This document shows, one piece after another, positions 3,895 through 31,895 of a stretch of DNA of 31,925 nt. Below the pieces are notes generated by a model that saw only the letters and a program-made list of their open reading frames with translations, was not told the origin of the DNA and searched no databases. Within the stretch, counting starts at the first letter, position 1; every line of letters begins with the position of its first letter. The translations under genes and the position numbers were made by a program. The DNA is from Paraspadella gotoi (taxonomy: Eukaryota; Animalia; Chaetognatha), in contig CM119268.1 of assembly GCA_051294375.1 (NCBI GenBank), positions 19,979,611 to 20,011,535 on the forward strand, in the 5' to 3' direction.

Positions 3895-4940
3895 TGTGCT
3901 CATCTGCGACATCTCCGGCTCCCGGGCACGCCTACTCGTTCCGGCATCGTTGCGCCGACGCGTTTTCGACGCCACCCATGGAATCGCTCACCCGGAAGTT
4001 CGTGTATCCAAAAAATTCGTAACGACTCGCTGCGTGTGGCCATAAGTCTCTTCCGACGTCGCGCGTTGGGCGGCGTCGTCCGACACTTGTGCATGTGCGC
4101 GAAACTTTTGGACAGTGGTTCAAATTTTTGGAGAAGCGCGCGGACGTAGCGCTGCATCTTGGCGCGCTTCTCCAAAAATTTGAACCACTGTACAAAAGTT
4201 TCGCGCACATGCACATCGATCTGGTTGACCCGCTGCCAGCCGTTTCCGGCCACACGCATCTCTTAACGATGATCGACCACTTTACACGCTGGCCGGAGGC
4301 GGCGCCGCTCCGCGTCGCCTACGTCGCCGCCGCCTTCCTGCAAAACTGGGTCTCGCGATTTGGCGTCCCTTCAGTCGTTACCACCGATCGCGGCGCCCAA
4401 TTCACGTCCGAACTGTGGCGCCAAGTGGCCGCAGTCGTTGGATTTTATTAGATTGAAGCTGGCCGTCACTGACGAGCTCGCACCACCCGACCCACCTCCG
4501 GCACGCCCACGCGGTCATCCCCGTCTCTGGAAATGGAAGCGGCGCCACTCGCGTCTTCCACGACGCCGCACGTTGCTCGACGTCAATCCTTTTCAATTCC
4601 CGGCCTTTTGAACGTTCTTCCGACGATGCTGCAGCCGCCGGAAGATGACGACGAAAGCGACGACCCGACAAACCGGAGACTTTCTCAAGCCTTCTTCCCG
4701 CCCGGTCAAAGCCTTTGTGGGGGGGATGTGTGGACGAACAGCAACAATACGCAACCTCGGTCAAACTATTGACCTTACCAAACTTACTCTCGATCGCTTT
4801 CTCTCACTCTTTTTATGGCCAAACGTTGACCTTGTAAATACCATTGTAATAGACTTAGCATTTGAGCATTTTCATTGTTATTGTTTATAACCTTGTTGAA
4901 GAATAAAATCATTCATGATCTGAAACTTGTTGCGTCCACA
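3895..4940 (+). mobile_element. 5'-truncated, internally deleted relic of a Gypsy element related to 25693-30746 (integrase fragment, PPT, 3' LTR)
   Basis: Aligns to ~29205-29718 (..DATHGIAHP..; HIDLVDPLP..DHFTRWPEA..TTDRGAQFTS), then jumps to ~30236. PPT GTGGGGGGGATG precedes an LTR at 4729-4940 (TGTGGACG...CGTCCACA) that is a diverged version of the full element's LTR. Confidence 0.92.
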
Positions 4941-5515
4941 AAACTTTATTTTTCTCTCTAGATACTATTTCATTTTATTTTCTTTGAGTGGATGCCAGAG
5001 GCGGAGGGAACCTTCCGTCCGTCCGTCCGTCCGTCCGTCCGTCCCACCTTTGCAAAAAACACCAATTACTCGCAATTGGATGGATGGATTTAATGAAATT
5101 TTGTGTGTGGGTAGGGAAGTGTGTGATTGAGCTGGATATAAAGTTTCGATGGAATCGTCCGAGTGGAATTGAGTTTAAATGGAAAAAACAAAAAAATTAT
5201 AATTCACTATTTGAACACCAATTTCTCATGAGTGGATGGGGCGATTGACCTGGAATTTTGTATGTGAGTAGGAAAGTGTGTGATTGAACAGGAAACCAAG
5301 TTTCGATGGAATCGTTTGAGTGGAAATGAGTTTAAATGGATAAAAACAAAAAACCTCTTTCACTAATTGATTATGATTTTTTTACCTTTTATATTATATT
5401 GTAGTGGTAGTATTTCATACCCCACTACTCGTCCGAGAATCAACAGCACCTATGGCGCCGGAGGTAGCACGAGCTCCTCCCAACCCAAAGGACTCGGGTT
5501 CGCGCCCTGCTGATT

Positions 5516-5597
5516 CGCACAAGTAAAAGCGGGACGGGGCGTCTAACCCACCTGTAGTGTGGACTACAGCCCGATCTGAAGTTCGGGACCTTGTGTG
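5516..5597 (+). ncRNA. Twister ribozyme (P5-type permutation), family A 5' LTR
   Basis: P5 CGCACAAG/CTTGTGTG; GA-CGG; P1 GGCGTC; T^AA (5544/5545); CCC-AC; P3 CTGTAG/CTACAG; P4 CCCGA/TCGGG; L4 T-CTG-AAGT. T1 is CGG:CTG (one G-U) and T2 is AC:GT. Confidence 0.75.
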
Positions 5598-5940
5598 CAA
5601 CGGACGGTAAACTGCTCGCGGCATCGTCTTCCACATTGGTGAGCCACACGAAACACGCTGGCACGTTAATACACCTCTGCCCGGGCATGTTAACACACCT
5701 CTGCCCTCGACCATCGTGTGTGAAGACGGGAGCAGGAATAGGCAGCCCCTCCTAGAGTGCTCGGGCACAACGCGTGCATCATAGCCATCACACTTGCGCG
5801 GGTGTGTGATGCCTAGGGGGGATGTGTAGTGGTAGTATTTCATACCCCACTACTCGTCCGAGAATCAGCAGCACCTATGGCGCCGGAGGTAGCACGAGCT
5901 CCTCCCAACCCAAAGGACTCGGGTTCGCGCCCTGCTGATT

Positions 5941-6023
5941 CACACAAGTAAAAGCGGGACGGGGCGTCTAACCCACCTGTAGTGTCGGACTACAGCCCGA
6001 TCCGAAGTTCGGGACCTTGTGTG
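5941..6023 (+). ncRNA. Twister ribozyme (P5-type), family A 3' LTR
   Basis: P5 CACACAAG/CTTGTGTG; L4 T-CCG-AAGT pairs perfectly with GA-CGG (T1) and with AC (T2). Predicted cleavage T5969^A5970. Confidence 0.8.
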
Positions 6024-6810
6024 CAACGGACGGTAAACTGCTCGCGGCATCGTCTTCCACAATATGTATATGCAGGATGTATTAATGAATCAAATAATTA
6101 ATCAGTTAATTAATCAATTAGTCAACAAATTAATCACTAATTAATTAATCAGTCAATCAATCCGTCCATCCGTCCCACCTTAGCAAAAAGCCCCAATAAC
6201 TCGTGATTGGCTGGTTGGATCGGAATGAAATTTTGTGTATGGGTAGGAACATGTGTGATGAAGCTGGATATAAAGTTTCGACGGAATCGTGTGAGTGGAT
6301 ATGAGTTTAAATGGAAAAAAGATAAGTCGCATTTACTAAAATATTTTTACTTATTTTGACCAATAAATACTTGTGTGTGGGTAGGAAAATGTGTGACGAA
6401 GCTTGATATAAAGTTTCGGTACGAGTGGAAATGAGTTTAAATGAAAAAAATATGAGTCACATTTACTTGAATCTTTTTACTTATTTTAACCCATAATAGA
6501 TTGAGATGAAATTTTGTGAGCGGGAAGAAAAGTTTGTTAAGAAGCTAGATATAAAGTTTTGACGGAATTGTGCCAGTGGAAATGAGTTTAAATGGAAAAA
6601 ATATAAGTCACATTTACTTTAGTTTAAGGATATCGTTGATGAAAATCTGTATATAAATTATAATTAATTATTAAATATTAAAATTAATTAATTAATTGAT
6701 TAATTAATTAATTTCCGACATTGTTTGCTCAAACTTGTTTATATATATATATTATATATATTATATTATATACTATATTATATATTATTTTATATATATT
6801 ATATCTATAT

Positions 6811-7607: not shown

Positions 7608-7757
7608 GTGAATTATACCAATATAAGCAACATTCTGTGGCGGTATATTCACACCGCCTCACGTCCACCATCCGTCAGCCAAATCCATTGGCTCAGAGGG
7701 GGAACACACCATCCCAGGCGTAGTGTTCCATCCACAGTTCTAATGACTTCCCTCTGC

Positions 7758-7838
7758 GTTGGCAAAGCGAGACCGTCCTAGGGTAACCGCGCCAGTGACT
7801 GGAGGCGTCACTGAGGGTCGGAAGCCCCCAAAGCCAAC
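7758..7838 (+). ncRNA. Twister ribozyme (P5-type), family B 5' LTR
   Basis: P5 GTTGGC/GCCAAC; AAA-GCGA-GA-CCG; P1 TCCTAGGG; T^AA (7784/7785); CCGC-GC; P3 CAGTGAC/GTCACTG; P4 GGG/CCC; L4 T-CGG-AAGC. T1 is CCG:CGG and T2 is GC:GC. Confidence 0.82.
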
Positions 7839-8243
7839 AGTGAGATGCCCCATCCCAATGGGCATCACAGGCAACCCGGCTGTTGCCATAAGTGGTGAGC
7901 CCTACTATCGAACACGCAACCTTCTCAGGGTACGCTGCGACAAACGCCTATGCCCTGCCGACTTCGGTACGCTACGACAAACGCCTATGCCCCTGGGGTA
8001 CGCTACGACAAACGCCTATGCCCCCACAACTCGCGCTCTCTCTCTCTCCCACTATGGTAACAGTCTTGTCAGACACCTCTCAGGCTTGAGGAACCTGAGT
8101 GATGTCTTGGCCCAGGGATCCTGTGGCGGTATATTCACACCGCCTCACGTCCACCATCCGTCAGCCAAATCCATTGGCTCAGAGGGGGAACACACCATCC
8201 CAGGCGTAGTGTTCCATCCACAGTTCTAATGACTTCCCTGTGC

Positions 8244-8324
8244 GTTGGCAAAGCGAGACCGTCCTAGGGTAACCGCGCCAGTGACTGGAGGCGTCACTGA
8301 GGGTCGGAAGCCCCCAAAGCCAAC
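8244..8324 (+). ncRNA. Twister ribozyme (P5-type), family B 3' LTR
   Basis: Identical to 7758-7838. Predicted cleavage T8270^A8271. Confidence 0.82.
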
Positions 8325-8589
8325 AGTGAGATGCCCCATCCCAATGGGCATCACAGGCAACCCGGCTGTTGCCATAATTCTATCATTCCATCGGGAAACA
8401 ATACTGTCATCTCTATTAGTAATACGACTGCGGTAAATTATTTAACTTATTTCTAATCGTTTATAGTGAGGAAGGAACGGGTGACCAAAATCCCTTTAAT
8501 TCGTTTTCCTTTAACCCGATCACCTCCACGGTCCCCGACAGAAACACTACGTCAATATCAACATCATTATCCCTCTCCCTTCCCGTCAG

Positions 8590-10640: not shown

Positions 10641-11830
10641 ATGAAATTGGTACAACCAATATAAAAATTATCCATTCATTAATAAATGACGCCTATCTTG
10701 CTCCCTGACTTTGGACAGTAAGGCGTAGTAAAATTTCTAAATTTAACTTTAATTAAAATTCTAAAAGTGAGGAACGAACAACATTATACTAATGAACATT
10801 TATGTAATAAAAAAATTTAAAATAATTTTACAATTTACGCCAGTAGGCCATATTTATACTAGTACTTAACCAATAAATGTTAAAATTTCAAAACAGTTTT
10901 TTCTAAGATTTTTTTGCAGATTTAGATTCCTCATAAAAAGTTTGATAAAAAGAAATATAACTCTTTTTGAAAAATTCCTTCATTAAGTAGGTCAAAAAAT
11001 AGAAAAAGCTATATTTAAGCTGAAAATTTAATTTTTTATATATAAATATAGTTTTTTTAATTTTTAACCCACTTAATGAAAGAATTTTTAAAAATGATTT
11101 ATATTTTCTTTTATCAAGTTTTGACGAGGAATTCAAATCTGCAATCAAAATTAAGAAAAGCCTATTTTGAAATTTTTCGATTTTATAAGGATAGTACTAT
11201 ATATAAATATAGCCTACTGCGAAAATTAAAAAACAAAAAATAATTTTTTTTTACAAATTAATGTTCACTGATGGTGTTGTTCATAATTGACTTTTAGAAT
11301 TTTCGTATGTAACTTTCACTACGCCTTATTGGACAGGCTTTGGTGGTTTAAGGCCTCCATCACTCTTACAAGATAATGACATAGCAGGTCCCTGCAAGCT
11401 TTCAATCAAGACTCTTCACAGACTCGTTTATTCACTCCAGAGTACCTGGCTTCCCTATCAATGAAGTGGAAAATATTTCAAAGAATGTTTCAATTGTATG
11501 AAAAGACCACTCCCTTAAGTATTAGATCGGGAATACTTATTGTACTCCGCACTAGCATCAAAATACAAGGAGCTGAATTTTATGAAATTGGTACAACCAA
11601 TATAAAAATTATCCATTCATTTAATAAATAAGCTATCTTGCCCTGACTTTGGACAGGCTTTGGTGGTTTAAGGCCTCCATCACTCTTACAAGATAATGAC
11701 ATAGCAGGTCCCTGCAAGCTTTCAATCAAGACTCTCTCACAGACTCGTTTATTCACTCCCAGAGTACCTGGCTTCCCTATCAATGAAGATGGAAAATATT
11801 TCAAAGAATGTTTCAATTGTATGAAAAGAA
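10641..11830. repeat. ~320-bp unit in partial tandem, first unit split by the MITE
   Basis: ATGAAATTGGTACAACCAATATAAAAATTATCC... starts at 10641 and 11582. It also occurs at 22715 and 23032, and as a fragment at 19811. Confidence 0.85.
10719..11328. mobile_element. 610-bp hAT-type MITE
   Basis: TIRs TAAGGCGTAGT / ACTACGCCTTA; 8-bp TSD TTGGACAG at 10711-10718 and 11329-11336. Confidence 0.92.
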
Positions 11831-11905: not shown

Positions 11906-12068
11906 GATATGTAAATAAAAATCGTTTTTTGAAATATAAAAAACTGTTCTTCCTAAAACTGTAAATTTTAGATGATGACGAGAAACAATGAAAATAATGA
12001 CAATTAGTATTGAAGATATAGGTTACGTTATGTCAACAGCCGGGTTGTCTGTGATTGGGCATCTCACA

Positions 12069-12149
12069 GTTGGCTTTGGGGGCTTCTGACCCTCCGTAAC
12101 GCGTCCTGTCACTGGCGCGGTTACCCTAGGACGGTCTCGCTTTGCCAAC
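12069..12149 (-). ncRNA. Twister ribozyme in the solo LTR (T1 disrupted)
   Basis: GTTGGC AAA GCGA GA CCG TCCTAGGG TAA CCGC GC...GGG T-CAG-AAGC CCCC AAA GCCAAC. The L4 change CGG>CAG mismatches the middle T1 pair. Confidence 0.7.
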
Positions 12150-12184
12150 GCAGAGGGAAATCGTTTGGACTGTGGAGTGTGGAT

Positions 12185-12794
12185 TAAGGCGTAGTAAAAT
12201 TCCTAAATTTAACTTTAATTAAAATTCTAAAAGTAAGGAACGAACAACATTATACTAATGAACAATTATATAATAAAAGAATTTATAATAAATTTTACAA
12301 TATACGCAGTAGGCCATATTTATACTAGTACTAAACCAATAAATGTTAAAATTTTAAAACAGTTTTTTCTAAGATTTTTTTGCAGATTTGGATTCGTCAT
12401 AAAAAGTTTTTAAAAAGATATTTAACTCTTTTTGAAAAATTCCTTCATTAATTAAGTGGGTCAAAAATTAGAAAAAGCTATATTTTAAGCTGGAAATTAA
12501 CTTTTTATATATTAAATATAGTTTTTTTTAATTTTTAACCCACTTAATATAATAATTTTTAAAAATGATTTATATTTTCTTTTATCAACTTTTGACGAGG
12601 AATTCAAATCTGTAATCAAAATTAAAAAAAGCCTATTTTAAAATTTTTCGATTTTATAAGGATAGTATAAGTATAGCCTACTGCGAAAATTAAAAAAACA
12701 TAAAATAATTTTTTTTACAAATTAATGCTCACTGATGGTATGTTGTTCATAATTAACTTTTAGAATTTTCGTATGTAACTTTCACTACGCCTTA
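12185..12794. mobile_element. 610-bp hAT-type MITE, second copy
   Basis: Same TIRs as 10719-11328; 8-bp TSD GTGTGGAT at 12177-12184 and 12795-12802. Confidence 0.92.
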
Positions 12795-12882
12795 GTGTGG
12801 ATGGAACGCAACGCTTGGGATTGGATGAACGATGGTGGATGTGAGGCGGTGTAATATACCGCCATAACGTTTCATTTCTCAG

Positions 12883-15399: not shown

Positions 15400-16694
15400 C
15401 GACGATTTTTGTTTTTAATAAGTTTTTATTGGACTTTTTTAAAATTTTGCATTATATTGAGAAAACGCTTTGAATTAAGCCCGCGCTCTACCTGATTTGA
15501 ATAGTAAAATCAATACAGTTTCTGTCAATTGTGTTCAAAATTGAAAAAAAATGAAGGCTTGACTATGCAGTTTTCACCTAAAAAACCAGTTCATTTGATT
15601 GCTTTATCAAGCAATTAAGATTGCAAGAATTTTAATTTGCTTTTTTTCATCATGTAGAGAAGACATAAGGTTTCGGAAACTGTACTAATATGTATGATTT
15701 GTAATTAGTTAAATCGTTACTTATTTAAAAATCCCTGCCTTTTCTCAGTCTCATGTCGAATGGTTATTGCAGTATCTCCATTAAAATAGATTCAGGGATG
15801 AATCTTAATTCATATATCAAAAAAGAGCGATATTAAAAATATATTGATGCTGTAGATGCTCCAGAATATTTTTTTTATATTATAAAGTATTGATAAAAGT
15901 TATAAGGTTCTGGGTAACCTTTCAGTAAACAAAGTTATCATTTTTATTTACCTCTGGATGTAATATCAGAAGTATCAAACGAGTCCAAAAAAAATAAAGA
16001 TTTTGTTGAAAGGAAAGATAATGCATCATCACATTATGCAGCAACTCAAGCCTAGTTTACTTTATAGGGGATCAAAGATCATTTTTTGCTCAAAATCTGA
16101 TAAAAAATATTATGTCAGAGATATAATATTAATTAATTTTATTTGAGTAAACAAATAAAGATATTTAGACGTGAGATAGTATGATTAAAAGTACAAAAAA
16201 TATTTTGTTTATATTGTTTGGGTAACAGTATCATTAATTAAAATATATTTATAATATTATCTTTATAAAATTAAAAATTTTCAAAATAATTTTTTTACAA
16301 ATTTGTATTAAAGATTCTGATTCTTCATAAAAAGTAAAATCAAAAATATAAAATATGTTATTAGAGAGAGCAAAGAATTTTGAATTTGTTATTAAAAATT
16401 TTAATGTCTTCAGCGTTAAAAATGTATTATATGATAAAACATTTTGGTCATTTTTTATAGTTTTAATCTAAAAATATTATTTAACATATTTTATAAAAGT
16501 TCTTTAGTTTTTTTCAGCGAATCCGAAACTGTTCTTAAAATAAAAAAACAATTTATTTAAAAAAATTTTGATTTTATAAGGATATTACTAAAAAAAAATT
16601 TAATTAATGATATTGTTATACAATTTTTTTTTTTAAAAATGGTGAAGAGACAGTAATTATTATTATGTGTTAGTGATAGAACCGTTCAATATAA

Positions 16695-16768
16695 GCAGTC
16701 CCTGAGCTTCGGATCAGGCTGTAATACCGAGTTATAGGCGGGATAAGCGCCCCCTCCCTCTTAACTGC
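16695..16768 (-). ncRNA. Twister-like ribozyme, family C 3' LTR (degenerate)
   Basis: GCAGT TAA GAGG GA GGG GGCGCT TAT CCC GC CTATAA..TTACAG CCTGA T-CCG-AAGC TCAGG G ACTGC. T2 is intact; T1 has one mismatch. Confidence 0.62.
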
Positions 16769-17121
16769 CAGGCGACCACCAGGCTAAAACCCAAGACCTT
16801 TGGGTTGGGAGGCGAATTATTTGCCTCCGGCACCAATGGCCGCTGATGAACGGTTTGGTGAAAATTTTTAGTCCACCATACCATCCCCTTTCCTGTAGGG
16901 AGAAGTCTGTTGCGTCTCTTCAGTGAATTGTTGTTTGTTGGTGGAAAGTCATCACCAAGTTGAGGCATGTCGCCTGATGTGTTGTGGGCGGAAAGTGCAT
17001 CGCCAGGTTGAGGTATGTCGCCTGAAAGTGTTATTGTTGCTGTTGTGTTCAGAAGTCGGGCTCTACCTATGAAGAGACATAATATTATTATTATGTGTTA
17101 ATGTGGAACCGTTCATATAAC

Positions 17122-17195
17122 GCAGTCCCTGAACTTCGGATCAGGCTGTAACACCGAGTTACAGGCGGGGTAAGCGCCCGTCCCTCTTTAACTGC
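17122..17195 (-). ncRNA. Twister-like ribozyme, family C 5' LTR
   Basis: GCAGT TAAA GAGG GA CGG GCGCT TAC CCC GC CTGTAA..TTACAG CCTGA T-CCG-AAGT TCAGG G ACTGC. T1 is CGG:CCG and T2 is GC:GT. Confidence 0.7.
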
Positions 17196-18499
17196 CGGCG
17201 ACCACCGGGCTAAGACCCCGGACCTTTGGGTTGGGAGGCGAATTAGTTGCCTCCGGCACTAATGGCCGCTGATCGACGGTTGGTGGATTTTAGTCCACCA
17301 TAATGGCTTAATTATTTTTTATTACATATACAAAGGCAGAATAAAAACATTGTTCCATCGCTCAATCTTTTCATCACTCCACCCTAATGAGTAGTCCTTT
17401 TGATCAAAAAGAGGTGAAAACAGTTAGAGACAACCACTTTTGGAAGTAATTATATGCAATAAATAATTTTATGCTGTTGAGAAATGATATTTTTATTTAA
17501 TCTTAAGGAGGTCATATTACCTATTTAATAGCAAAAAAATATAATTGATAACGAAATTAAACTTTTCCAAACCGCGACAATTTTTTTTTCCATCATGGTA
17601 TTAAATTGTTCTTTTGTTTTCATCTTTCCTTATTCTTCAATATCATCTTTTGATTCTTTTATTTTTTTCCTTTTCTCAATTTTTTACTTTATTTTTTTTC
17701 TCGACAAAGATATTTTCGCTCATTTTTAACAGTGATCGTTGTTTCTGTTTTAAACGTTTGTTTTGTTTTTTTTCATTAAAGTTTTGACATGAATTTTATT
17801 TTATTTTTTTTGCGGATCAATTTTGCCTTCAGACTGACGAATAGTGATTACTGATTAGTATTTTTTTTTTAGTTTTCGTCGTCGTCGTCGTCGTTGATTC
17901 GTACTCAGCGGTCTGGTCTCGGCGGAAGAGTGGTCTGTGCAAGACGAGGATGACAATCGAGCAAACACGACTCGCTTTTCAGCGCTCGACCGCTCGACCG
18001 CACCCGGCAATTTCGTGGCCACAGTATTCTTTTTTTTTGGCGGGCCGTTTGCTCTCAATTTTAAATCTCATTTTTTGTTTCATTCACATTAATTAATTGA
18101 TGCTAAATTTAGTATAATTTTTATTTTTCATCGATCATTTTTTATCGTAATCTTTATGGAAATACGCGTCTGTCAGCTATATGCCTCCCATTTTCCAATG
18201 AAAGCAGAATTTCATTAACAACTAAGCCTTTTACCTAAAGTATCATAGTAGAAGTCGAGTGGCATAAAAATCGTGCGTTCCATCCCGTTGTATATTAGCT
18301 TTAATAAATTGAATTTTTAGCCTCCTTTAAATTTACTGTGCCCTCTAGCTTTCGACTGTCTTTGGTGTCCGATTCCACTGTGTGATCGCACGAGGAGGAA
18401 AATTGAAACTGAATTTGCTTCCCGGCTGGCTCCCCCCCTCACAGTTTTCCTCTCCCACGGCTCCTACTCGCATGACCCCTTCCCGGTTGCCACCCACCC

Positions 18500-18970: not shown

Positions 18971-20557
18971 GGCTCGCCACTTTGCGTCATCGTCATCATC
19001 TCTTCTTCTTTTTACTTTTTTTTTATTGAGTTTTTCATTTTTGCGTGGAACTGAAACACGTACGTTTGCTTTTATGTTTTTACCCTCGAGTTCTTTTCTG
19101 CTCTTTTCTGCTCTTTTCTGATTTTCCTCTTATTCTCGTCGCTCTTAACTTGGAAATGGTTGAAACATTTTTAAAAATATTTTAAGTACAACAGAACTTC
19201 GACATTAAAATGACACATGCGGATAAAAAATATTTCGGAAAAATGCTAAGCTTAAATAAAAACTTTTTTTTTGGAAATAAAGATCGAAAAGTTATTTAGT
19301 TTTTATAATTACAATAATATCATATGAATTATACAAGTTGAATTATACCTAAATGGTATGGTTTTCATTAATTTTCCCCTAGATTAACTCTTATTAACCC
19401 TTATTATTGGTTAAAAAATTTGAGCAAACAATGTCGGATCTTCCCACGATCATTAGCGGTAATTAATTAATAAATTAATTAATTTGATCCGAAATGTTTG
19501 TTTTTAGGTCTTTTCGTCACTGACCACGAAAAAAGCAACAACTACGATGATGGAGGCGACGACAATAATGCCGATAACGATTGGATTGATTAATTGATTA
19601 AATAATTAATTAATTAATAAATAAATTGATTGATTGATTAATTGATTAATTAATTGATTGATTGATTGACTGATTAATTAATTATTGATTAATTAATTGA
19701 CTAATTGAATAATTAACTGATTAATTATTTGCTTAATTAATACATCTTGTATTTATATTTAATATAAAAAGAAGCATAATTAAATCGAATCCATGACTAT
19801 GAACAATTGTATGAAATTGGTACAACCAATATAAAAATTATCCAGTCATTTAATAAATAAGCTATCTATAATAAAAAGCTATAAATAAGCTTAAATAAGC
19901 TATAAATAAGCTATCTATAATGTTAGAAATAGTTCATAAACCACAACAATATCGCCTCGAAATCATTTTTCCATCGCGAGCATCGCAATCGGAACGAAAA
20001 AGAGAGCGAGAAAAGTCAGATCGCCCAATCTGTGTTGCGTTTATGAATTACGAAGCGGATCAAATGAAACTACAGTCATGGCGGATCGGAAGACAATCAG
20101 ATGCCTGGTATCGGGCTTGAGTTACTACAGATACATACCATACATACATACATACCATACATACCATATAGTGAGAGACAGTAAGGTCGCGCCCGTGAAT
20201 CTGAGGTTAAGACTCGTTTATATTTTGGTTTTGAAGAAAAAAAAAGAGAAATAAAAGGTAAATAAGTTTACATTGAAAACGAGGTGACTCTCGTTTTGTG
20301 TCCCCAAAAACACTTATAATATGAAAGTTAATTGGGACTGTTTTTATTAGGGGAAGCCTAAATCAATAAAGTGGTTAAGAAATTTGAATTAAGCACCTGC
20401 TTAAACGAAAATTTAAACATTTTTAAAAAAATTTGAATAGATAAAAAATTTTAATATTACACCATATATAGGACTAAGCTCTGACGAACCTAGCCAGAGG
20501 TTTTTTAATATATTCTTGAAGACATATTGAAGTAATCCTTTTTCGTTGTTACTATTA

Positions 20558-20649
20558 ATTAGAGAATTGACAAAGTTTTTGTTTGCAACGAATTTTATTT
20601 AATTATAAATAAAATTCGTTGCAAACAAAAACTTTGTCAATTCTCTAAT
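20558..20649. repeat. Perfect inverted repeat, 44-bp arms with a 4-nt loop
   Basis: 20558-20601 is the exact reverse complement of 20606-20649. Confidence 0.95.
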
Positions 20650-22714
20650 ATATTCTTATACCGGCCAAGGTAGAATGATGGCAATATTGTTAATATTAAG
20701 TTTCAAAAAAATCCGATCATAAATATAGAAAATATTAACCAAAATCTTCGGAAAATATACCCCTTCTTAGGCAGATTTTTGCCATAGAAGATTTTTCCCG
20801 AATCTGACTCCCCGGGTTTGAAAACTCTTAGAATTCCGAATCGTTAGCTCTCTTTTACTTTAAATAAAAATTTCACCAAAATGACTAATTCACTTTCCCA
20901 TGATCGTATCATATCAAAATGACTAAATAAAATGTAAAGAAAATTTTGAGAGCCCTTCAGACACTTTGTCAAAGGATTCCAAAATTGGATGTCATTTGTT
21001 GAACAGGAACATACCTTAGTCACGGTTTATATCGTTTTCAAGGAAAAAATCCCTTTCATTTCTGTATAAAAATCAGAGATAGAAAATTTTTCCATCCAGA
21101 AGCAGTCTATTTGTTCTGGCTTGTTTGATATCAAGATGTTGATGATTTGACAAGAGAAAAAAAAATGCGAGCCCTTCAGATACAACAGGATTGGAATCAA
21201 GTGTTTTATACATTCGATTGTATTTCGCGGAATTTTTCCCAGGAACGTTTATATTGTTTGGTAGTCAAATTTGAACAACAATCTTCATTGAAAATATCTT
21301 CTTCGATCTCTAAGAACGATGTCGGCTCCTAACATATATTAATTTTTTAATATTTATTTATAAATAAGAAAGGCTAAAAAAATTTTTACGATTTTTTATT
21401 TTTAAGTTCAGATTCAGGTAGCTTGCAAAAAGTTGTCTAACAAAGTATAATTTTTTTTATAATATTTGATCCTAAGTGGGTAAAAAATATGAAAATCTAT
21501 TTATCATCATTCAATAATTTATTCCTTTTTCTTAATTTGGACCAAGAAAACATAAAACTTTTTTAAAGTTGTAGTTTATATTTTTTATTTAACTTTTTAT
21601 GCTCTATAAGAATCCTTTAAAAAAAGTTAAGATTGATTAAAAAAAAATTTATCATTATATATTATTAGTAATATTGTAATTTTGATAGCAATAATAAAAG
21701 CATTAAAATCGAACTTTTTTTTAAAATTCTTTTTGTTACCTGAAAGTAGACTTCAAGACTAAAGTTTTGAACCCCCGCCCCTATTGAATTTAATTTAATA
21801 GAAGATTTCTATCTTTATAACCTCGTTTTTCCAAAAATATTGCCAGAAAGAGCCAATTTTGTAAAAGGCCCTCTATCTCCAATACAATTTTTTTCATGAC
21901 AGATTGAAATTTAAAAAAAAATATCTATAACAAGTATTAATGTTATCAGAAAATAACTTACTGAAAAGTTCACTTTTATTTTTTCCCTTTAATTAATTTT
22001 ATTTTGAAAAAATTTAAAGCCAACGTTTAGACGAAACCACTCCTATCCGAAGCTGCAGACAACGCCTGCAGAAAATTGTATAAGATTTTCTAGTAGTGTA
22101 TCAAGATGGATTCAGATTTTCAAAAACGTTTACACAAGTGATAACACATATATATACTTTAATATACTTTAATTTAAAACACTTTTTATTCGATTTGAAA
22201 TTCTCAACATGAGAGATCCCGGTCGATTTTTATCTGGCTTTTAAATTATGTAAATTAGCTTACGATCGAATTTGTCAGATAACGATTGACGCTCTTTATT
22301 CGCGTAATTTTAAACGTTTTATTATTGTAATATTATAAATAATTAAATATTAAAATTTTTAGAATATATATTTTATAAATATAAATAGTTATAGTATTTA
22401 TAATAATATAAATAAGACAAAAAATAGCATTTAAACGAGAGCTTGAATGCTTCTTATCTAAATGAAGAATTCGAACATATTTTTGCATAAAATAAAAAAA
22501 TAACTATTTTGCTTGCTTAAAATCATTATTACATATAATAAACTTTTATAAATTGTATAATTCAATCGTTTAAGTTATCGTTATACGTGCTTTAATAAAT
22601 AGGTAAATATGAAAAAACTTGATAACTAAGATGAAAATAACCAATAAAAGTAAAATATTAAAAAAAATAATAAAAATATTAATATCATTAAAAATATTAT
22701 TTAACAATAATAAT

Positions 22715-23105
22715 ATGAAATTGGTACAACCAATATAAAAATTATCCATTCATTTAATAAATAAGCTATCTTGCCCCTGACTTTGGACAGGCTTTGGTGG
22801 CCTCCATCACTCTTACAAGATAATGACATAGCAGGTCCCTGCAAGCTTTCATTCAAGACTCTCTCACAGTCTCAATTATTCACTCCCAGAGTACTTGGCT
22901 TCCCTATCAATAAAGTGGAAAATATTTCAAAGAATGTTTCAATTGTATGAAAAGACCACTCTCTTAAGTATTAGATCGGGGAATACTTATTGTACTCCGC
23001 ACTAGCATCAAAATACAAGGAGCTGAATTTTATGAAATTGGTACAACCAATATAAAAATTATCCATTCATTTAATAAATAAGCTATCTTGCCCCTGACTT
23101 TGGAC
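22715..23105. repeat. ~320-bp unit, about 1.2 tandem copies
   Basis: Same unit as 10641-11830, without the MITE (single TTGGACAG empty site). Confidence 0.88.
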
Positions 23106-25014: not shown

Positions 25015-25023
25015 AATTAACTC

Positions 25024-25292
25024 ATCACGTCAATGAATGACTAGCATCGCATCAATGAATGACTATCATCGCATCAATGAATGACTATCATCGCATCAAT
25101 GAATGATTATCATCCGATCAATGAAGGACTATCATCGCATCAATGAATGATTATCATCGCATCAATGAATGACTATCATCGCATCCATCATTTGGTTATC
25201 ATCGCATCAATCCTTCGGTTATCATCGCATCAATATTTGGTTATCATCGCATCAATATTTGGTTATCATCGCATCAATATTTGGTTATCATC
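25024..25292. repeat. 22-bp minisatellite, about 12 copies
   Basis: Unit ATCGCATCAATGAATGACTATC grading into ATCGCATCAATATTTGGTTATC. Confidence 0.92.
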
Positions 25293-25992
25293 AAAAGTAG
25301 GCTCGATCCCTATTGCTTTTAAGATTTTTTTTTATCATTTTCTTAATTTATGATCTTCCCAGATCTGTGCAAAAATTTTAATAATATTTAAAGTATTAAT
25401 TGTAATTTCGCTATAGAGAGGCAGTGCAAGAACAAAAACACTTATTTTTTTCAGAATGACGTGAAGGAAAATACTTTAATACTAATCACATTAATTATTG
25501 TGAGTATGTACAAATAAATATTACTGTTGAGATAAGACAGTGCAGATTTTAATTTATTTGCTAATATTTTGATATATATTGAGAAATCCTTTGTCCTTTA
25601 ATCTCATTTGCATGAAAATTTTCAAATTACTTGTTTCACTATCTTTTATTTTTTATTTTTATATTTTATGAAAGATTTACCATTTAATCTATTGTGGACG
25701 AACAACTACAACACGCAACCTCGGTCAAAACTGAACTTACCAACCTTACCCTCGACCGTTTTCCCTCATTTCTCTTTATGGTCAAACTTTGACCTTGTAA
25801 ATATCTATTGTTATAGACTTAGCATCTGAGCCTTTTATTGTTATCGTTTTTAACCTTGTTGAAGAATAAATCATTCTTACTCTGAAACTTGTGTCGTCCA
25901 CACGTGGTGAGCCCCGTGAAAAACAAAACAAATAAAACAAACCAAAAAAATAATAAAAAATCTCTCAACTCATTTTTTTTTTTCCCTCTTTG

Positions 25993-27206
25993 ATGTCCCG
26001 TCGACCAAGCACCTTCCGTCCTCCATCGCCAGCCGACGAAGAAGAAGAGACAATGCCAGTAACGACTCGCAACGCCTCTCATTCCGACGGCGCCGGCCAC
26101 GACGAGGCGTTCCACGACGCCGCTGCATCCTCATCTACCCCAAATCTCGAAAACAAAATCGAAAAACTTTTTGAAATGATTTACGAGTTGAATTCAAAAT
26201 TTCCTCCATCACTGAGAGACCAACTCCTTCATCAGCAGACGCCAGCACCGCCTCAACGGAACTGCCTTCCCCACAGGAAGATAATGGCGCCGGTGACGCC
26301 GCCCCCGCAGGGGACGCCGCCCGCCCTCGTCCTTCCTCCGACGCCCCTGCTAGAGACGAAACCCAAAACTGACGACCTTTGACCCCGACCACATCGAGGA
26401 GTGGTTGGACCACACTGCTGTGGAATTTGGCGCCACCGGCGTCACCAACCCGGCGGAGAAGAAGGCGCAAATCCTCAGCGCCATCCCTATCGCCCGCCAC
26501 CGGCTGATTCCACACGCTCTGCGCATCGACGAAGGTCTCGACGCCCACAACAATCTTGTCGCCCACTTAAAAAACATTTATGGTGAAGATGCCAACCGGC
26601 GCGCCGCAAAGGCGTTGAAGATGACGTCGCTGAAAGGCGTCACCCCCTCTCAACACCTTTCTGCGATTGACGCCGTCCTTGAAGGCCTCACCATCGACCA
26701 CATCAAGGCCGCCATCTTGGCCGCTGCCCTCCTCAGAGCGTGAGGGAACACGCCGTCAGGAAGGACAAGAAGCCCGCCGACATCGCCAAAGATGCCGACG
26801 AGTTCTTCCTCCCTTCCGGCCAACTTCGATGCTCCGATCGCGCCTCAACTCCGTGAACGCCGTCACCTCCATTGAAGTCACAGTGGACGAGCCACTGGAG
26901 ACTCCAAACGAATCGACTGATTCCGACGACGCCGCCTTCTCTTATGCGAACGCAGTCCGCCGACCGCCGCCGCGCTCAACGCAACGCCCTTTTTCGCAGC
27001 AGCGTCAACTGCAGCAACGCACGCAGCAGCAACGCCGCCCAATCTTGACGCCTCGTTCCCCTCCACATCGCGAACCGCCTATAGGCGAAGCTAAGTGCTT
27101 TTACCATTACAATTTCGGCCCCAACGCCTTCAAATGCCACGGGACTAATCGCGACGGCCGCCCGTGCCCAATGGCGCCGTCAAACGCCAACGCCAGCGGC
27201 CGCTAG
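25993..27206 (+). pseudogene. gag: gag (frameshifted as assembled)
   Basis: Split over three ORFs. Contains TFDPDHIEEWLDHTAVEFGATGVTNPAEK and C-terminal CFYHYNFGPNAFKCHGTNRDGRPC; TAG at 27204-27206. Confidence 0.85.
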
Positions 27207-30200
27207 TCGCCCACGTCGCTGGCCAAAACGACTCTAAACTCTTTCTAGTGCGCGACCCGACGCCGGCCTGGAGTGGCCGACCGCGCCGCCGCCTAAAGCG
27301 AATCCTGCCGCCGTCGAGGCGGCGCTCCCGCCGCAAACGCTCCGCCACTCCGCGCCGCCAACGACACGCCCATCGAAACCTTTGGCATTCGAGAAATGGG
27401 GATTAGACTGGGAAAACGCGTTTTCCCTTATCTCGTCATTATCGCCGACGTCGCCACGCCCATTCTCGGCGCCGACTTTTTGATGGAGCATCATCTCGGC
27501 GTTGATCATCAACGCCGTATCCTCCTCGACCTCGACGACTACATGGTCATTTCTGGCCATGCCCACGACGCCGCCTCAGCCGCGGCGCCGCCCCGCGTTT
27601 TACAGTCCGCGATGCCTACTCCGCGCTTCTTGATGAGCGACCGGAACTTACAAAGCTCGTCTTCAACTCGGCGCCGCCCAAGCACGGCGTCGAACACCAT
27701 ATCCCAACGAAAGGTCCGCCCGTCTTCGCCCGCGCCGCCGTCTCGCCCCCGATCAGCTTGCCGCCGCCAAAGCCGAGTTTGAAAAAATGTTGGAACTCGG
27801 CATAATCCGACGATCCACTTCCGCTTGGGCGTCGCCGCTTCACGTTACACGGAAACCCGATGGCTCTCTCCGTCCATGCGGCGACTACCGGCGCCTCAAT
27901 GGCGTCACCGTCGACGACCGCTACCCAATTCGCCACCTCATGGACTTTAACGCCGACGTCGCCGGGAAGACGGTCTTCTCGAAGATTGACCTTTGCAAAG
28001 GTTACCACCAGATTCCCGTTGCAAAAGAAGATCGTCACAAAACGGCAATTATCACACCGTTTGGTTATACGAATTTCTCTTCATGCCATTTGGTTGAAAA
28101 ATGCCGGTCAGGACTTCCAACGTATGATGGATCAAGTCCTGAGCGGCATCCCCCATGTTTTCGTTTACTTGGACGATCTCCTCGTAGCGTCTCACTCACA
28201 CGAGGAACACCAAGAAGACCTCAAACGCGTCTTCAACGCCCTCGCCAACAACGGCCTCATTGTCAATCGCGCCAAGTGCGTTTTCGGCGCATCCAGCCTC
28301 GAGTTTCTCGGCTACAACGTCGACAAAGATGGCGTTCGACCACTTCCGGCAAAAGTGGAGGCGCTACGTGCGATGGCAACGCCCACTTCCGTCAAGGAAC
28401 TTCAACGCTTCCTCGGCGTCTTTAATTATTATCGTCGTTTTGTTCCCCACGCCGCACACCATCTCGATCCACTTCTCGAAGTCCTCCGTGGGAAACCGCG
28501 CGCGCTTAAGTGGGCGTCGCCGCAAGACGCCGCTTTCCAGGCAATCAAAGATGCACTTGCAGACTCCACGATGCTGGTACACCCCATCGACGGCGCCCCT
28601 CTCGCTCTCACAGTCGACGCCTCCGACGTTGCTGTCGGCGCTGTCCTCGAACAGCTCGTCAACGGCTAATGGCAACCTCTTGGTTTCCATTCCAAGCCGC
28701 TGAAGCCAAACCAGCGCAAATGGCCTCCCTTCGACAAGGAGCTCCTCGCCGCCCACGCCTCGATCCGCCACTTCCGTCCATATCTTGAAGGGCGCCGTTT
28801 TACTCTTTTCAGCGACCATATCTCGCTCGTACCGGCGCTGAGGAAGAAGGCGGAGCCTCACACAATGAGGCAGACATATCAACTGGCGGGCATCGCCGAA
28901 TATACCGGCGATATTCGCCACATCGCCGGGAAAGCCAACGTCGTCGCCGATGCACTCTCTCGCCCGCCAATGAAAACCCCGTCCCCGCCGCCAGCGTCGC
29001 CAATCAACGCGAACCAAACCGCGCCAGCCTCGAACGTTCAAAAAGCGCGTGACGACATCGCCGCCACCGTCAATGCCGTCGGCGCCCTTCAAATCAATTT
29101 TGAGGCAATGGCGGCAGATCAGGCCACCGACGACGACGTACAGAGGCTCCTCAATGACCCTCACACAGCACTCCGTCTAAAAAACGTTCCAATAAGGAAC
29201 ACAACGCTCGTGTGCGACATTTCCGGTTCGCGGGCACGCCCACTCGTCCCTATGTCATGGCGCCGACGCGTTTTTGATGCCACCCATGGCATTGCTCACC
29301 CAGGGGTTCGCGCATCAAAGAAACTGATTACAACGCGTTTCGTTTGGCCATCCGTCTCATCCGACGTTGCGAGGTGGGCGTCATCATGTGACACATGCCA
29401 GCGCGCCAAGACCAACGTCATGTCCGCGCGCCTCTCCAGCATTTTGAACCACCTTCAAAACGATTCGCCCATGTCCACATCGACCTCGTCGGACCACTAC
29501 CCGCTGTTTCTGGCCACACACATCTCTTGACCATGATCGACCGCTTTACGCGCTGGCCGGAAGCGGCGCCGCTCCGCGACACCTCCGCCGCCTCAGTTGC
29601 CGCCGCTTTTTTACAGAACTGGGTCTCCCGTTTCGGCGTCCCTTCCGTCGTCACCACTGATCGTGGCGCCCAATTCACGTCGGAATTGTGGCGCCAAGTG
29701 GCGGCAGTCGTTGGCTTCGATCCCTCTACAACAACCGCCTACCACCCCCAATCCAACGGGATGGTAGAGCGTCTCCATCGAACGCTGAAGGCGGCCCTTC
29801 GCGCTCGCTGTGACGCCGCGGGAGAAAACTGGCTGGCGCAACTTCCCTGGACTCTTTTGAGCCTCCGCGCAACTCCACGTGAGGATTCCGACGCCTCACC
29901 CGCCGAATTGACGCTGGGCGAGTCACTCACGCTCCCCAGTGAGCTACTTCCGGTTCCAGCAACCGACGTCGACGCCGCCGCTCGCGCACAAATCCTCGAC
30001 AGTCTCCGAGCTGATGTTGCCTCATGCAGCCCCTGCCCGCCGCTTGGCACGCGGCGCCGCCCTCTCACGTCCCGGAAACTCTCGCTGACGCCGACCGTGT
30101 CTACGTCAGACGTGACGGCCACTCGACGCCGCTCCAGCCTCCCTACGACGGCCCTTACGTCGTGCGTGAACGAGGACCGAAAACCTTCAAAGTCTGAAAT

Positions 30201-30579
30201 CCCGGGCCGCGGCGTCGAAGTCATCTCCGTCGACCGATTGAAGCCGGCCGTCACTGACGAGCTCGCGCCTCCTGACCCACCTTCGGCGCGCCCACGTGGC
30301 CGTCCCCGTCGAGTCTCTGCTCCCTCCACCCGTATCCCCGCCTCCGGAAACGGAAGCGGCGCCACTCGCGTCTTCCACGACGCCGCACGTTGCTCACGGA
30401 CAATCCATTTCAATTCCCGGCCTTTTGAACATTCTTCCGACGATGCTTCAGCCGCGAAGATGACGACGAAAGCGACGACGCAATTCAATGATTTTCTCAG
30501 CCTTCTCCCCATCCGGTCGAAGCCTTGGTGGGGGATGTGTGGACGAACAACTACAACACGCAACCTCGGTCAAAACTGA
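27164..30579 (+). pseudogene. pol: pol: protease, reverse transcriptase, RNase H, integrase (frameshifted as assembled)
   Basis: ILGADFL (PR); WASPLH..RPCGDYRRLN..KIDL.KGYHQIP and YLDD (RT); LTVDAS (RH); HGIAHPG..CDTC, HIDLVGP, TTDRGAQF, HPQSNGMVER and YDGPY (IN). Several frameshifts and a TAA at 28667. Confidence 0.95.
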
Positions 30580-31660
30580 ACTTACCAACCTACCTCGACC
30601 GTTTTCCCTCATTTCTCTTTATGGTCAAACTTTGACCTTGTAAATATCTATTGTTATAGACTTAGCATCTGAGCCTTTTATTGTTTATCGTTTTTAACCT
30701 TGTTGAAGAATTAATCATTCTTACTCTGAAACTTGTGTCGTCCACACTATTCTTTAATATTATAGTGCGGTAAAAATTTAAAACGTAAATATTCAATAAT
30801 CCGCTTTACATTTAAAAAAATTAACTTCATATACTTATTTAAGTACATGGAAAGTACAGGAATCACAGACAGGCCAGGCCAAACTCTGATATCGATCCGG
30901 CCTACTGAATGTGTATTTTATGGCCCATATGTTTCAAGTTTTGTTTTTTTTGGATCACTGTGACCCCTCCTCCCTCCTTCTTCCCCCTCTCTCCGCCTTT
31001 ATCTCTCCAATCCCCTCCCTTCTCCTCCTCCTTCCTCTTTCTCCTCCTCCCTTCGCCTCATTGCGTATCATCGACCAAATCGACCAAAATCTTGGGTCAT
31101 TCCTCATTTATTATTCAGTGTAACTGCCGCGTGGGGCATCTGTCGTCAAGTTCCCCTCGCGTTGGACCTTGTCTCTCTCCCCCGCCCCTTTCCCTATCTC
31201 TCTCTCCTCTTCTCTCTGACTTTGCACTTTCTCAATTGCGACTATGAAAGCGCTGTACGTGGCAAAAAATTTCATTGTCCATGTAAACAGTAGTCGGGAG
31301 ACGAAGCGGATTTTTTTATTCGCTCCATTTTTAGCTAATTCTGATTAACGAAAAGGACAACTCTGCTAAATACTACTTTAAACAAGTACTTTTTTATCTG
31401 AACACTGACCCCTTTTTAAGGCTCAAATATCTGAATTAGTGATTCCAATAATTCTGTTTAAGAGCCTAATTGGGTTGAATTTTATACTGAATATCTGGTC
31501 TCTCATTGTAGTAGATGTTTTGATTTATTCTCACTATGAGATTAAAGACGAAGACTTTTACATCAACGATTGATTTTTATTTGTCAGACATGTTACGGCT
31601 TTTTGACTTGTCAACTTTAAATTAATTCATAAGTGAACTATGAATGATATAAGGAAAATA

Positions 31661-31895
31661 CCGCGCTCAACGCAACGCCCTTTTTCGCAGCAGCGTCAAC
31701 TGCAGCAACGCACGCAGCAGCAACGCCGCCCAATCTTGACGCCTCGTTCCCCTCCACATCGCGAACCGCCTATAGGCGAAGCTAAGTGCTTTTACCATTA
31801 CAATTTCGGCCCCAACGCCTTCAAATGCCACGGGACTAATCGCGACGGCCGCCCGTGCCCAATGGCGCCGTCAAACGCCAACGCCAGCGGCCGCT
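31661..31895 (+). mobile_element. Exact 235-bp copy of the gag 3' end (26970-27204)
   Basis: Base-for-base match by eye, from CCGCGCTCAACG to CAGCGGCCGCT. Confidence 0.93.

Follow-up and report, generated by a model that had tools for sequence, protein, structure and literature searches.

The window analysed here is a stretch of 31,925 nucleotides from the chaetognath Paraspadella gotoi (GenBank assembly GCA_051294375.1, contig CM119268.1, positions 19,979,611 to 20,011,535 of the forward strand), and all positions below are counted from its first letter. It contains a Ty3/Gypsy long terminal repeat (LTR) retrotransposon with CsRn1-type hallmarks (25693-30746, + strand, 5054 bp, with pol broken as assembled) and three non-coding mini-elements, A, B and C, with twister-type motifs in their LTRs. 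A first-pass annotation had proposed the Gypsy element as the probable autonomous helper of the mini-elements, which would parasitise reverse transcriptase (RT) and integrase of the CsRn1 type. We consider it likely that A, B and C owe their copying and insertion to CsRn1-type enzymes of the host acting in trans, because they carry a primer-binding site (PBS), a polypurine tract (PPT) and LTR ends of the same type. The helper proposal appears sound at the level of the clade, and the Gypsy family of the window is a plausible but unproven supplier.

The Gypsy element and the mini-elements

The Gypsy element lies between two copies of the 4-bp target site duplication (TSD) CTAT, at 25689-25692 and 30747-30750, and all of its parts are on the + strand. 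The 5' LTR (25693-25902, 210 nt) runs from TGTGGACG to CGTCCACA and is followed after 2 nt by the PBS TGGTGAGCCCCGTG (25905-25918), which is of the tRNA-Trp type with a G at position 7. A Gag Cys-His motif, CX2HX9CX9C, is encoded at 27096-27167 and resembles the CHCC type of CsRn1 with a longer last spacer. The pol region (27315-30460) spans a protease region, RT, RNase H and the integrase zinc finger and core; the last four are recovered with Pfam in the order typical of Gypsy elements. The PPT ends in GGGGGATG (30530-30537) and abuts the 3' LTR (30538-30746, 209 nt). The two LTRs differ by two transversions and three gap columns with no transitions, unlike the LTR pairs of A and C.

A deleted, older relative of the same family lies at 3898-4940 (+ strand), with an integrase remnant, the PPT GGGGGGGATG and a 3' LTR (4729-4940) at a Kimura two-parameter distance of 0.13 from the Gypsy LTR. 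Its integrase remnant (4088-4215) contains a 54-nt inverted duplication of 98% identity. At the end of the window, 235 nt (31661-31895) are 100% identical to the end of the Gypsy gag (26970-27204) and have no LTR, so this piece is either a young fragment or an assembly artefact.

Mini-element A (5400-6061, + strand) has LTRs at 5400-5635 (236 nt) and 5825-6061 (237 nt), a PBS at 5637, a PPT ending at 5824 and the TSD ATAT. Mini-element B (7636-8376, + strand) has two LTRs of 255 nt, at 7636-7890 and 8122-8376, a PBS at 7893, a PPT ending at 8121 and the TSD ATTC. Mini-element C is on the - strand (16643-17302), with a 5' LTR at 17070-17302 (233 nt), a 3' LTR at 16643-16880 (238 nt), a degenerate PBS at 17055-17069, a PPT at 16881-16889 and the TSD CCAT. 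The three are 660-741 bp long, with LTRs of 233-255 nt and internal parts of 189-231 nt, and each shows the features that define Helenus/TRIMp3 elements, namely a length below 1 kb, two LTRs, a PBS, a PPT, no coding sequence and a 4-bp TSD. The B family is also represented by a solo LTR (12029-12866, - strand), which has the 4-bp TSD ACGT and is split by an insertion at 12185-12794 with an 8-bp TSD. The insertion is about 610 bp long, has terminal inverted repeats and a second, 92% identical copy at 10719-11331; from its TSD length, we take it to be a hAT-type miniature inverted-repeat transposable element.

Divergence between the two LTRs of an element is 0.004 in B, 0.010 in the Gypsy element and 0.013 in A, which are overlapping values, and 0.083 in C, which is below the 0.13 of the older relative. 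The mini-element LTRs do not resemble the Gypsy LTR (alignment scores of 17-18 against a shuffle mean of 17). The LTR bodies had been described as unrelated, and this holds with respect to the Gypsy LTR and for B but not for A and C, which have mutually related LTRs (score 69 against a shuffle maximum of 26). The pattern common to the A and C LTRs had no match in the metagenome contigs.

Our descriptor of the twister-type motif matches five of the six mini-element LTRs, none of the three Gypsy-type LTRs and none of 100 block shuffles, and these counts belong to a descriptor that was tuned after the sequences had been seen, two stricter earlier versions having matched nothing. The Gypsy LTR had been reported to have no twister, and it is among the three without a match. 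In A, a tRNA-like segment with box A and box B motifs is followed by the twister-type motif, with predicted cuts near 5544 and 5969 that would release a unit of 425 nt. The predicted cuts in B, near 7784 and 8270, would release 486 nt, and the unit in C would be 427 nt, the motif being present in its 5' LTR and decayed in its 3' LTR. In the twister-type layout the pseudoknot pairs are swapped between A/C and B. Rfam gives a weak twister-P1 match in B only (15.2 bits, E 4.2, below threshold) and no twister in A or C at E values up to 10, and minimum free energy folding of the twister regions does not decide the matter (z of 0.06, -2.28 and -1.30). Box A and box B are both found in A, whereas B and the 5' LTR of C have box A only, by a loose pattern that also matches the Gypsy LTR; ARAGORN found no tRNA genes in the window.

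Elsewhere in the window, a weak Rfam Twister-P5 match at 11642-11684 (- strand, 25.8 bits, E 0.16) sits in a separate, partly tandem repeat family (11329-11829, 22714-23105, 10641-10718 and 19802-19867) without a visible LTR pair. A near-perfect, AT-rich hairpin of about 85 nt lies at 20561-20646, where all miRNA matches are below threshold, and a tandem array of about 12 copies of a 22-nt unit occupies 25022-25300.

Terminal signals and the CsRn1 clade

Every PBS string, PPT end and 4-bp TSD that had been quoted for the Gypsy element, A, B and C was found again in the window. In four of four elements the PBS string begins 0-2 nt from the end of the 5' LTR and the PPT string abuts the 3' LTR, and 4-bp duplications flank all four full elements and one solo LTR. 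The 9-mer TGGTGAGCC occurs three times in the window (A, B and Gypsy), each time at an LTR edge, and a degenerate form is present in C. Chance was rejected as the source of the common 9-mer, given that 0.10 occurrences are expected and a count of three was reached in none of 100 shuffles. Pairing of the PBS past these 9 nt is poor. The PPTs of A and the Gypsy element are identical over their last 8 bases.

CsRn1-like elements are characterized by a tRNA-Trp PBS of the form TGGTGA(G/C)CCCG(T/A), a 4-bp TSD and a CHCC Gag (PMC2582038). The same source bears out the first-pass statement that the clade primes on tRNA-Trp and makes 4-bp TSDs, and already lists the G variant of the PBS. The Gypsy element has a Trp-type PBS with one extra C compared with the printed pattern, and the TSD CTAT on both sides. 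A 4-bp TSD is not diagnostic by itself, and we rejected it as clade evidence on its own, given that Saci2 elements likewise make 4-bp TSDs (PMC12471100). In Gag, CX2HX9C is present and the four residues stand in the CHCC order, but 9 residues separate the last Cys from the third instead of the three of CX2HX9CX3C; the last spacer is X3 in 33 of 33 related families that have the motif. Among the 120 integrase homologues listed, 11 are long enough before the RT to hold a Gag, and CX2HX9CX3C is present in eight of these and CCHC in none.

In a quick-search integrase tree of 87 rows, the Gypsy element forms a group with four proteins close to it and with two metagenome loci, at an SH-aLRT (approximate likelihood ratio test) support of 98, and one of these loci (L045) has both a CHCC motif and a Trp PBS. 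The clade assignment rests on hallmarks and neighbours because the tree holds no named CsRn1 sequence, nor one of another named Gypsy clade, and the Gypsy element fits a CsRn1-type element with a variant Gag motif. A separate CHCC-bearing element on a metagenome contig (L032) carries exactly the composite PBS TGGTGAGCCCGAC that had been derived from the elements of the window. No close relative of the Gypsy element was found in viral contigs, with no locus in one search and one at 35% in another. A loose pattern for the tRNA-Trp variant matched 25 stretches in viral contigs, which are probably due to chance and irrelevant to the host, and these were set aside.

We compared the terminal signals with those of 79 related-element loci, the best 79 of 566 confirmed, which collapse into 65 families when grouped at 90% integrase identity. 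PBS calls were obtained for 34 of these and PPT calls for 55; one PBS call (L098) was dropped given that it coincided with the LTR start, leaving 33. The string TGGTGACCC is present in 29 of the 33 families, and PBS position 7 is C in 29, G in three and A in one. All four elements of the window have G at this position, and an AT after the G-run of the PPT is found in all four and in the older relative but in none of the 55 families; both variants were selected with hindsight, and A and C, being related, do not count as independent. G7 is not clustered on the integrase tree (four changes, shuffled mean 3.9), and because of this scatter it may track the host tRNA and not the family. The LTRs of the related families start with TGTGG in 34 and TGTAG in 15 cases, together 49 of 55; B starts with TGTGG and A with TGTAG.

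The LTR ends were scored against nine of the eleven integrase attachment (att) motifs in Table 3 of PMC3601003, six of them from Gypsy elements. CsRN1 is the top motif overall for B (13.5 versus 1.3) and C (7.2 versus -0.3), and when only the six Gypsy motifs are compared it ranks first for each of the mini-elements as well as for the Gypsy LTR. Judged from sequence, the end signals of the mini-elements are of the CsRn1 type. The proposed use of CsRn1-type enzymes is thereby upheld at the level of the clade, where the hallmarks of the Gypsy element and the top rank of CsRN1 among the Gypsy motifs agree with it. At the level of the family it is not shown, as CsRn1-type families of other hosts score as high as the Gypsy element of the window.

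Proposed sources of the enzymes

Frameshift-aware alignment of the Gypsy pol with two relatives (64-65% identity) gives eight frameshifts, near 27600, 27734, 28066, 28095, 29411, 30020, 30195 and 30322-30343, and one stop at 28667, with 0 events in two control elements; about two further frameshifts are suggested in gag. The copy as assembled is not autonomous, and this part of the first-pass proposal falls. To compare other copies, contigs from four sequencing runs were mapped on 25500-30900. The family is multi-copy in three of the runs, which come from three studies of one organism and gave 2569, 908 and 454 contigs, with 30 of 30 bins covered. Among 12 of the 88 gap rows, contigs differ from the assembly at two pol breaks in 50-98% of the depth and also at one gag break. 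Three substitution-free contigs have 1, 1 and 3 gaps where the alignment places 1, 1 and 3 frameshifts, a match drawn from the counts. Given the gap differences in the contigs and an LTR pair without transitions, some of the breaks are likely assembly errors or very recent, and the family probably has sister copies without breaks, unless the assembly is at fault.

Two further observations were set aside. A contig joint in run X4 that skips 5150 bases was considered as an empty site, but it does not coincide with the element ends and its flanks are repeated. A run from a second organism (organism B, run X10, with a share of 0.06 of the A/B stretch) had no contigs on the Gypsy element; this absence may be false and was not used for co-occurrence.

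Mobilization by CsRn1-type enzymes could proceed as follows. RNA polymerase III (Pol III) would transcribe the mini-element from the tRNA-like segment of the LTR, in which the motifs are seen and their use is presumed. The twister-type motifs in both LTRs are predicted to excise a unit of 425-486 nt, which would circularize, as the units of plant retrozymes do, and may then enter a CsRn1-type particle, although no packaging sequence in common was found. A host tRNA-Trp, probably a variant ending in GGGCUCA-CCA, would prime reverse transcription at the PBS, and RNase H would spare the G-rich PPT as the primer of the plus strand. Integrase would finally join the TG/TA...CA/TA ends and duplicate 4 bp; the duplications themselves are observed.

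Several observations weigh against this reading, besides the broken copy, the clade-unspecific TSD, the tree without named references and the after-the-fact choice of variants given above. No sequence beyond the boxes is common to the Gypsy element and the mini-elements, and the one borderline match (the C LTR, 1 of 100 shuffles) is one of nine Gypsy comparisons. In summed box similarity, 3 of 29 foreign families do at least as well as the Gypsy element of the window for A, 23 for B and 7 for C. Measured on the clade profile, the PPT boxes of the mini-elements come out near the bottom of the range, and only 7, 3 and 2 of 55 families score lower. For A, the margin of CsRN1 over the MagA motif is thin (8.8 versus 7.7), and the vertebrate Gamma att motif outscores CsRN1 for both A and the Gypsy LTR.

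Nested within the reading of a CsRn1-type helper is the narrower proposition that the Gypsy family of the window is itself the helper of A, B and C, which we regard as possible and somewhat doubtful. The AT after the G-run of the PPT, common to all four elements and the older relative and absent from the 55 foreign families, counts for a link at the family level, since this variant cannot derive from a host tRNA. The identical PPT ends of A and the Gypsy element and the overlapping LTR ages point the same way, as do the substitution-free contigs with 1-3 gaps over the frameshift stretches, by which unbroken sisters or assembly errors become likely. However, the Gypsy element is not the best overall match for any of the mini-elements and has no internal sequence in common with them, and the families with a G7 PBS are dispersed over the integrase tree.

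The helper might instead be a Trp-primed Gypsy family outside CsRn1, with the likeness explained by a common host tRNA and generic LTR signals. A PBS reflects the tRNA of the host and not the enzyme, a TSD of 4 bp is common among Gypsy clades, MagA ends fit A almost as well, and Helenus lineages are reported to have switched primers and perhaps also partners (PMC10886601). Such a helper is nevertheless improbable, given that CsRN1 ends fit B and C far better, that the TGTGG and TGTAG starts prevail in the clade baseline, and that the Trp PBS is tied to CsRn1 in invertebrates (PMC2582038, PMC3587641). Even less probable, and in our view very unlikely, is that ribozyme-cut RNAs were inserted by a non-LTR route, namely target-primed reverse transcription, with the PBS and PPT as leftovers. 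Animal non-LTR retrozymes have been linked to Penelope-like elements (PMC7761336, bioRxiv 10.64898/2026.07.22.740005), and the poor pairing beyond 9 nt and the degenerate PBS of C would suit this route. In contrast, three of three full copies and the solo LTR have uniform 4-bp TSDs, with the full copies running exactly from LTR to LTR, there are no tails and no 5' truncation, and the PBS and PPT are correctly placed in three diverged families.

Relation to known retrozymes and miniature retrotransposons

The Gypsy element resembles the CsRn1 clade (CsRn1, PwRn1 and AgCR-1 to -14; PMC2582038) in its G-variant Trp PBS, 4-bp TSD, G-rich PPT, short LTRs starting with TGTGG, CHCC-type Gag and the order of protease, RT, RNase H and integrase. 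It differs from the clade in the last Gag spacer of 9 and not 3 residues, in the PPT end GGGAT (0 of 55 families) and in being broken as assembled. Trp-primed CsRn1-like elements have also been reported from crustaceans (PMC3587641).

The mini-elements are like Helenus/TRIMp3 elements in being non-coding, miniature retrotransposons with terminal repeats (TRIMs) that have a putative tRNA-like segment in the LTR as well as 4-bp TSDs, and like Helenus in that the LTRs are not homologous to those of a helper proposed from the PBS (PMC10886601). Gypsy helpers of Helenus TRIMs were deduced from a shared PBS and 4-bp TSDs (Kojima 2024, PMC10886601), and the Trp-primed families, Helenus-2_SyJa among them, were paired with Gypsy-32_NVi, with no Gypsy clade named in the accessible text. 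The twister-type motifs and the G7 PBS set the mini-elements apart from Helenus; in the accessible text of PMC10886601, ribozymes appear only in the title of a reference. In the LTR retrozymes of plants (Cervera et al. 2016, PMC4918200), each LTR holds a ribozyme, where five of the six mini-element LTRs have a twister-type layout. The plant elements also make a 4-bp TSD and have only the PBS, PPT and LTR-end boxes in common with their putative Ty3-gypsy helper. They use a hammerhead and tRNA-Met, whereas a twister-type motif and a Trp PBS are found here, and their cleavage and circles have been demonstrated, whereas those of the mini-elements are predictions from sequence. LTR retrozymes have been described as mainly plant elements (PMC7761336; bioRxiv 10.64898/2026.07.22.740005). 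Our literature search, which did not extend to subscription journals and Repbase, found no paper combining retrozymes with CsRn1 and, among the titles and abstract openings listed, no LTR element with a twister and no CsRn1 helper. Within these searches, naming CsRn1 for ribozyme-bearing animal TRIMs appears new; helper assignments of this kind have been published before.

In the supplement of PMC10886601, the wasp LTRs Helenus-2_SyJa-LTR and Helenus-2_SyUm-LTR show, by eye, the layout of a type III hammerhead downstream of the tRNA-like segment, made up of a GUC site, the cores CUGAUGA and GAAA, and two loops (I and II) that can pair with each other over 12 nt. Two of eight occurrences of CTGATGA can be read as a full type III hammerhead, both in these LTRs, the others having been seen with 90 letters of context. 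The Trp PBS string occurs four times in the accessible supplement text, only in Helenus-2_SyJa, Helenus-2_SyUm and the rows of the Trp-pair figure; line breaks may conceal matches in these string searches. The ends of Helenus-2_SyJa and Helenus-2_SyUm agree by eye with the CsRN1 att motif at 6 of 7 and 7 of 7 positions. The accessible parts of PMC10886601 make no mention of a hammerhead in the Helenus-2 LTRs.

The comparison, made by eye, suggests that ribozymes of two classes exploit one clade of Gypsy elements. That the CsRn1 clade is a recurrent host of animal LTR retrozymes, with the twister TRIMs described here and the Trp-primed Helenus elements of wasps as separate captures of different ribozymes on the same type of machinery, is a speculative idea that we think more likely wrong than right. 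The helpers of TRIMs and retrozymes have almost always been deduced from the primer site alone, and the helper question becomes testable once a clade is named, a candidate family close in age is present in the same host and two rare signal variants are known. If the wasp elements do not use CsRn1, the case would come down to an ordinary pairing of TRIM and Gypsy element such as has been published before. If those with the hammerhead do use CsRn1, a single Gypsy lineage would have given rise to animal LTR retrozymes more than once, and a recurrent host role would suggest an unusual capacity of CsRn1 particles for packaging and copying Pol III RNAs that are uncapped, self-cut or circular.

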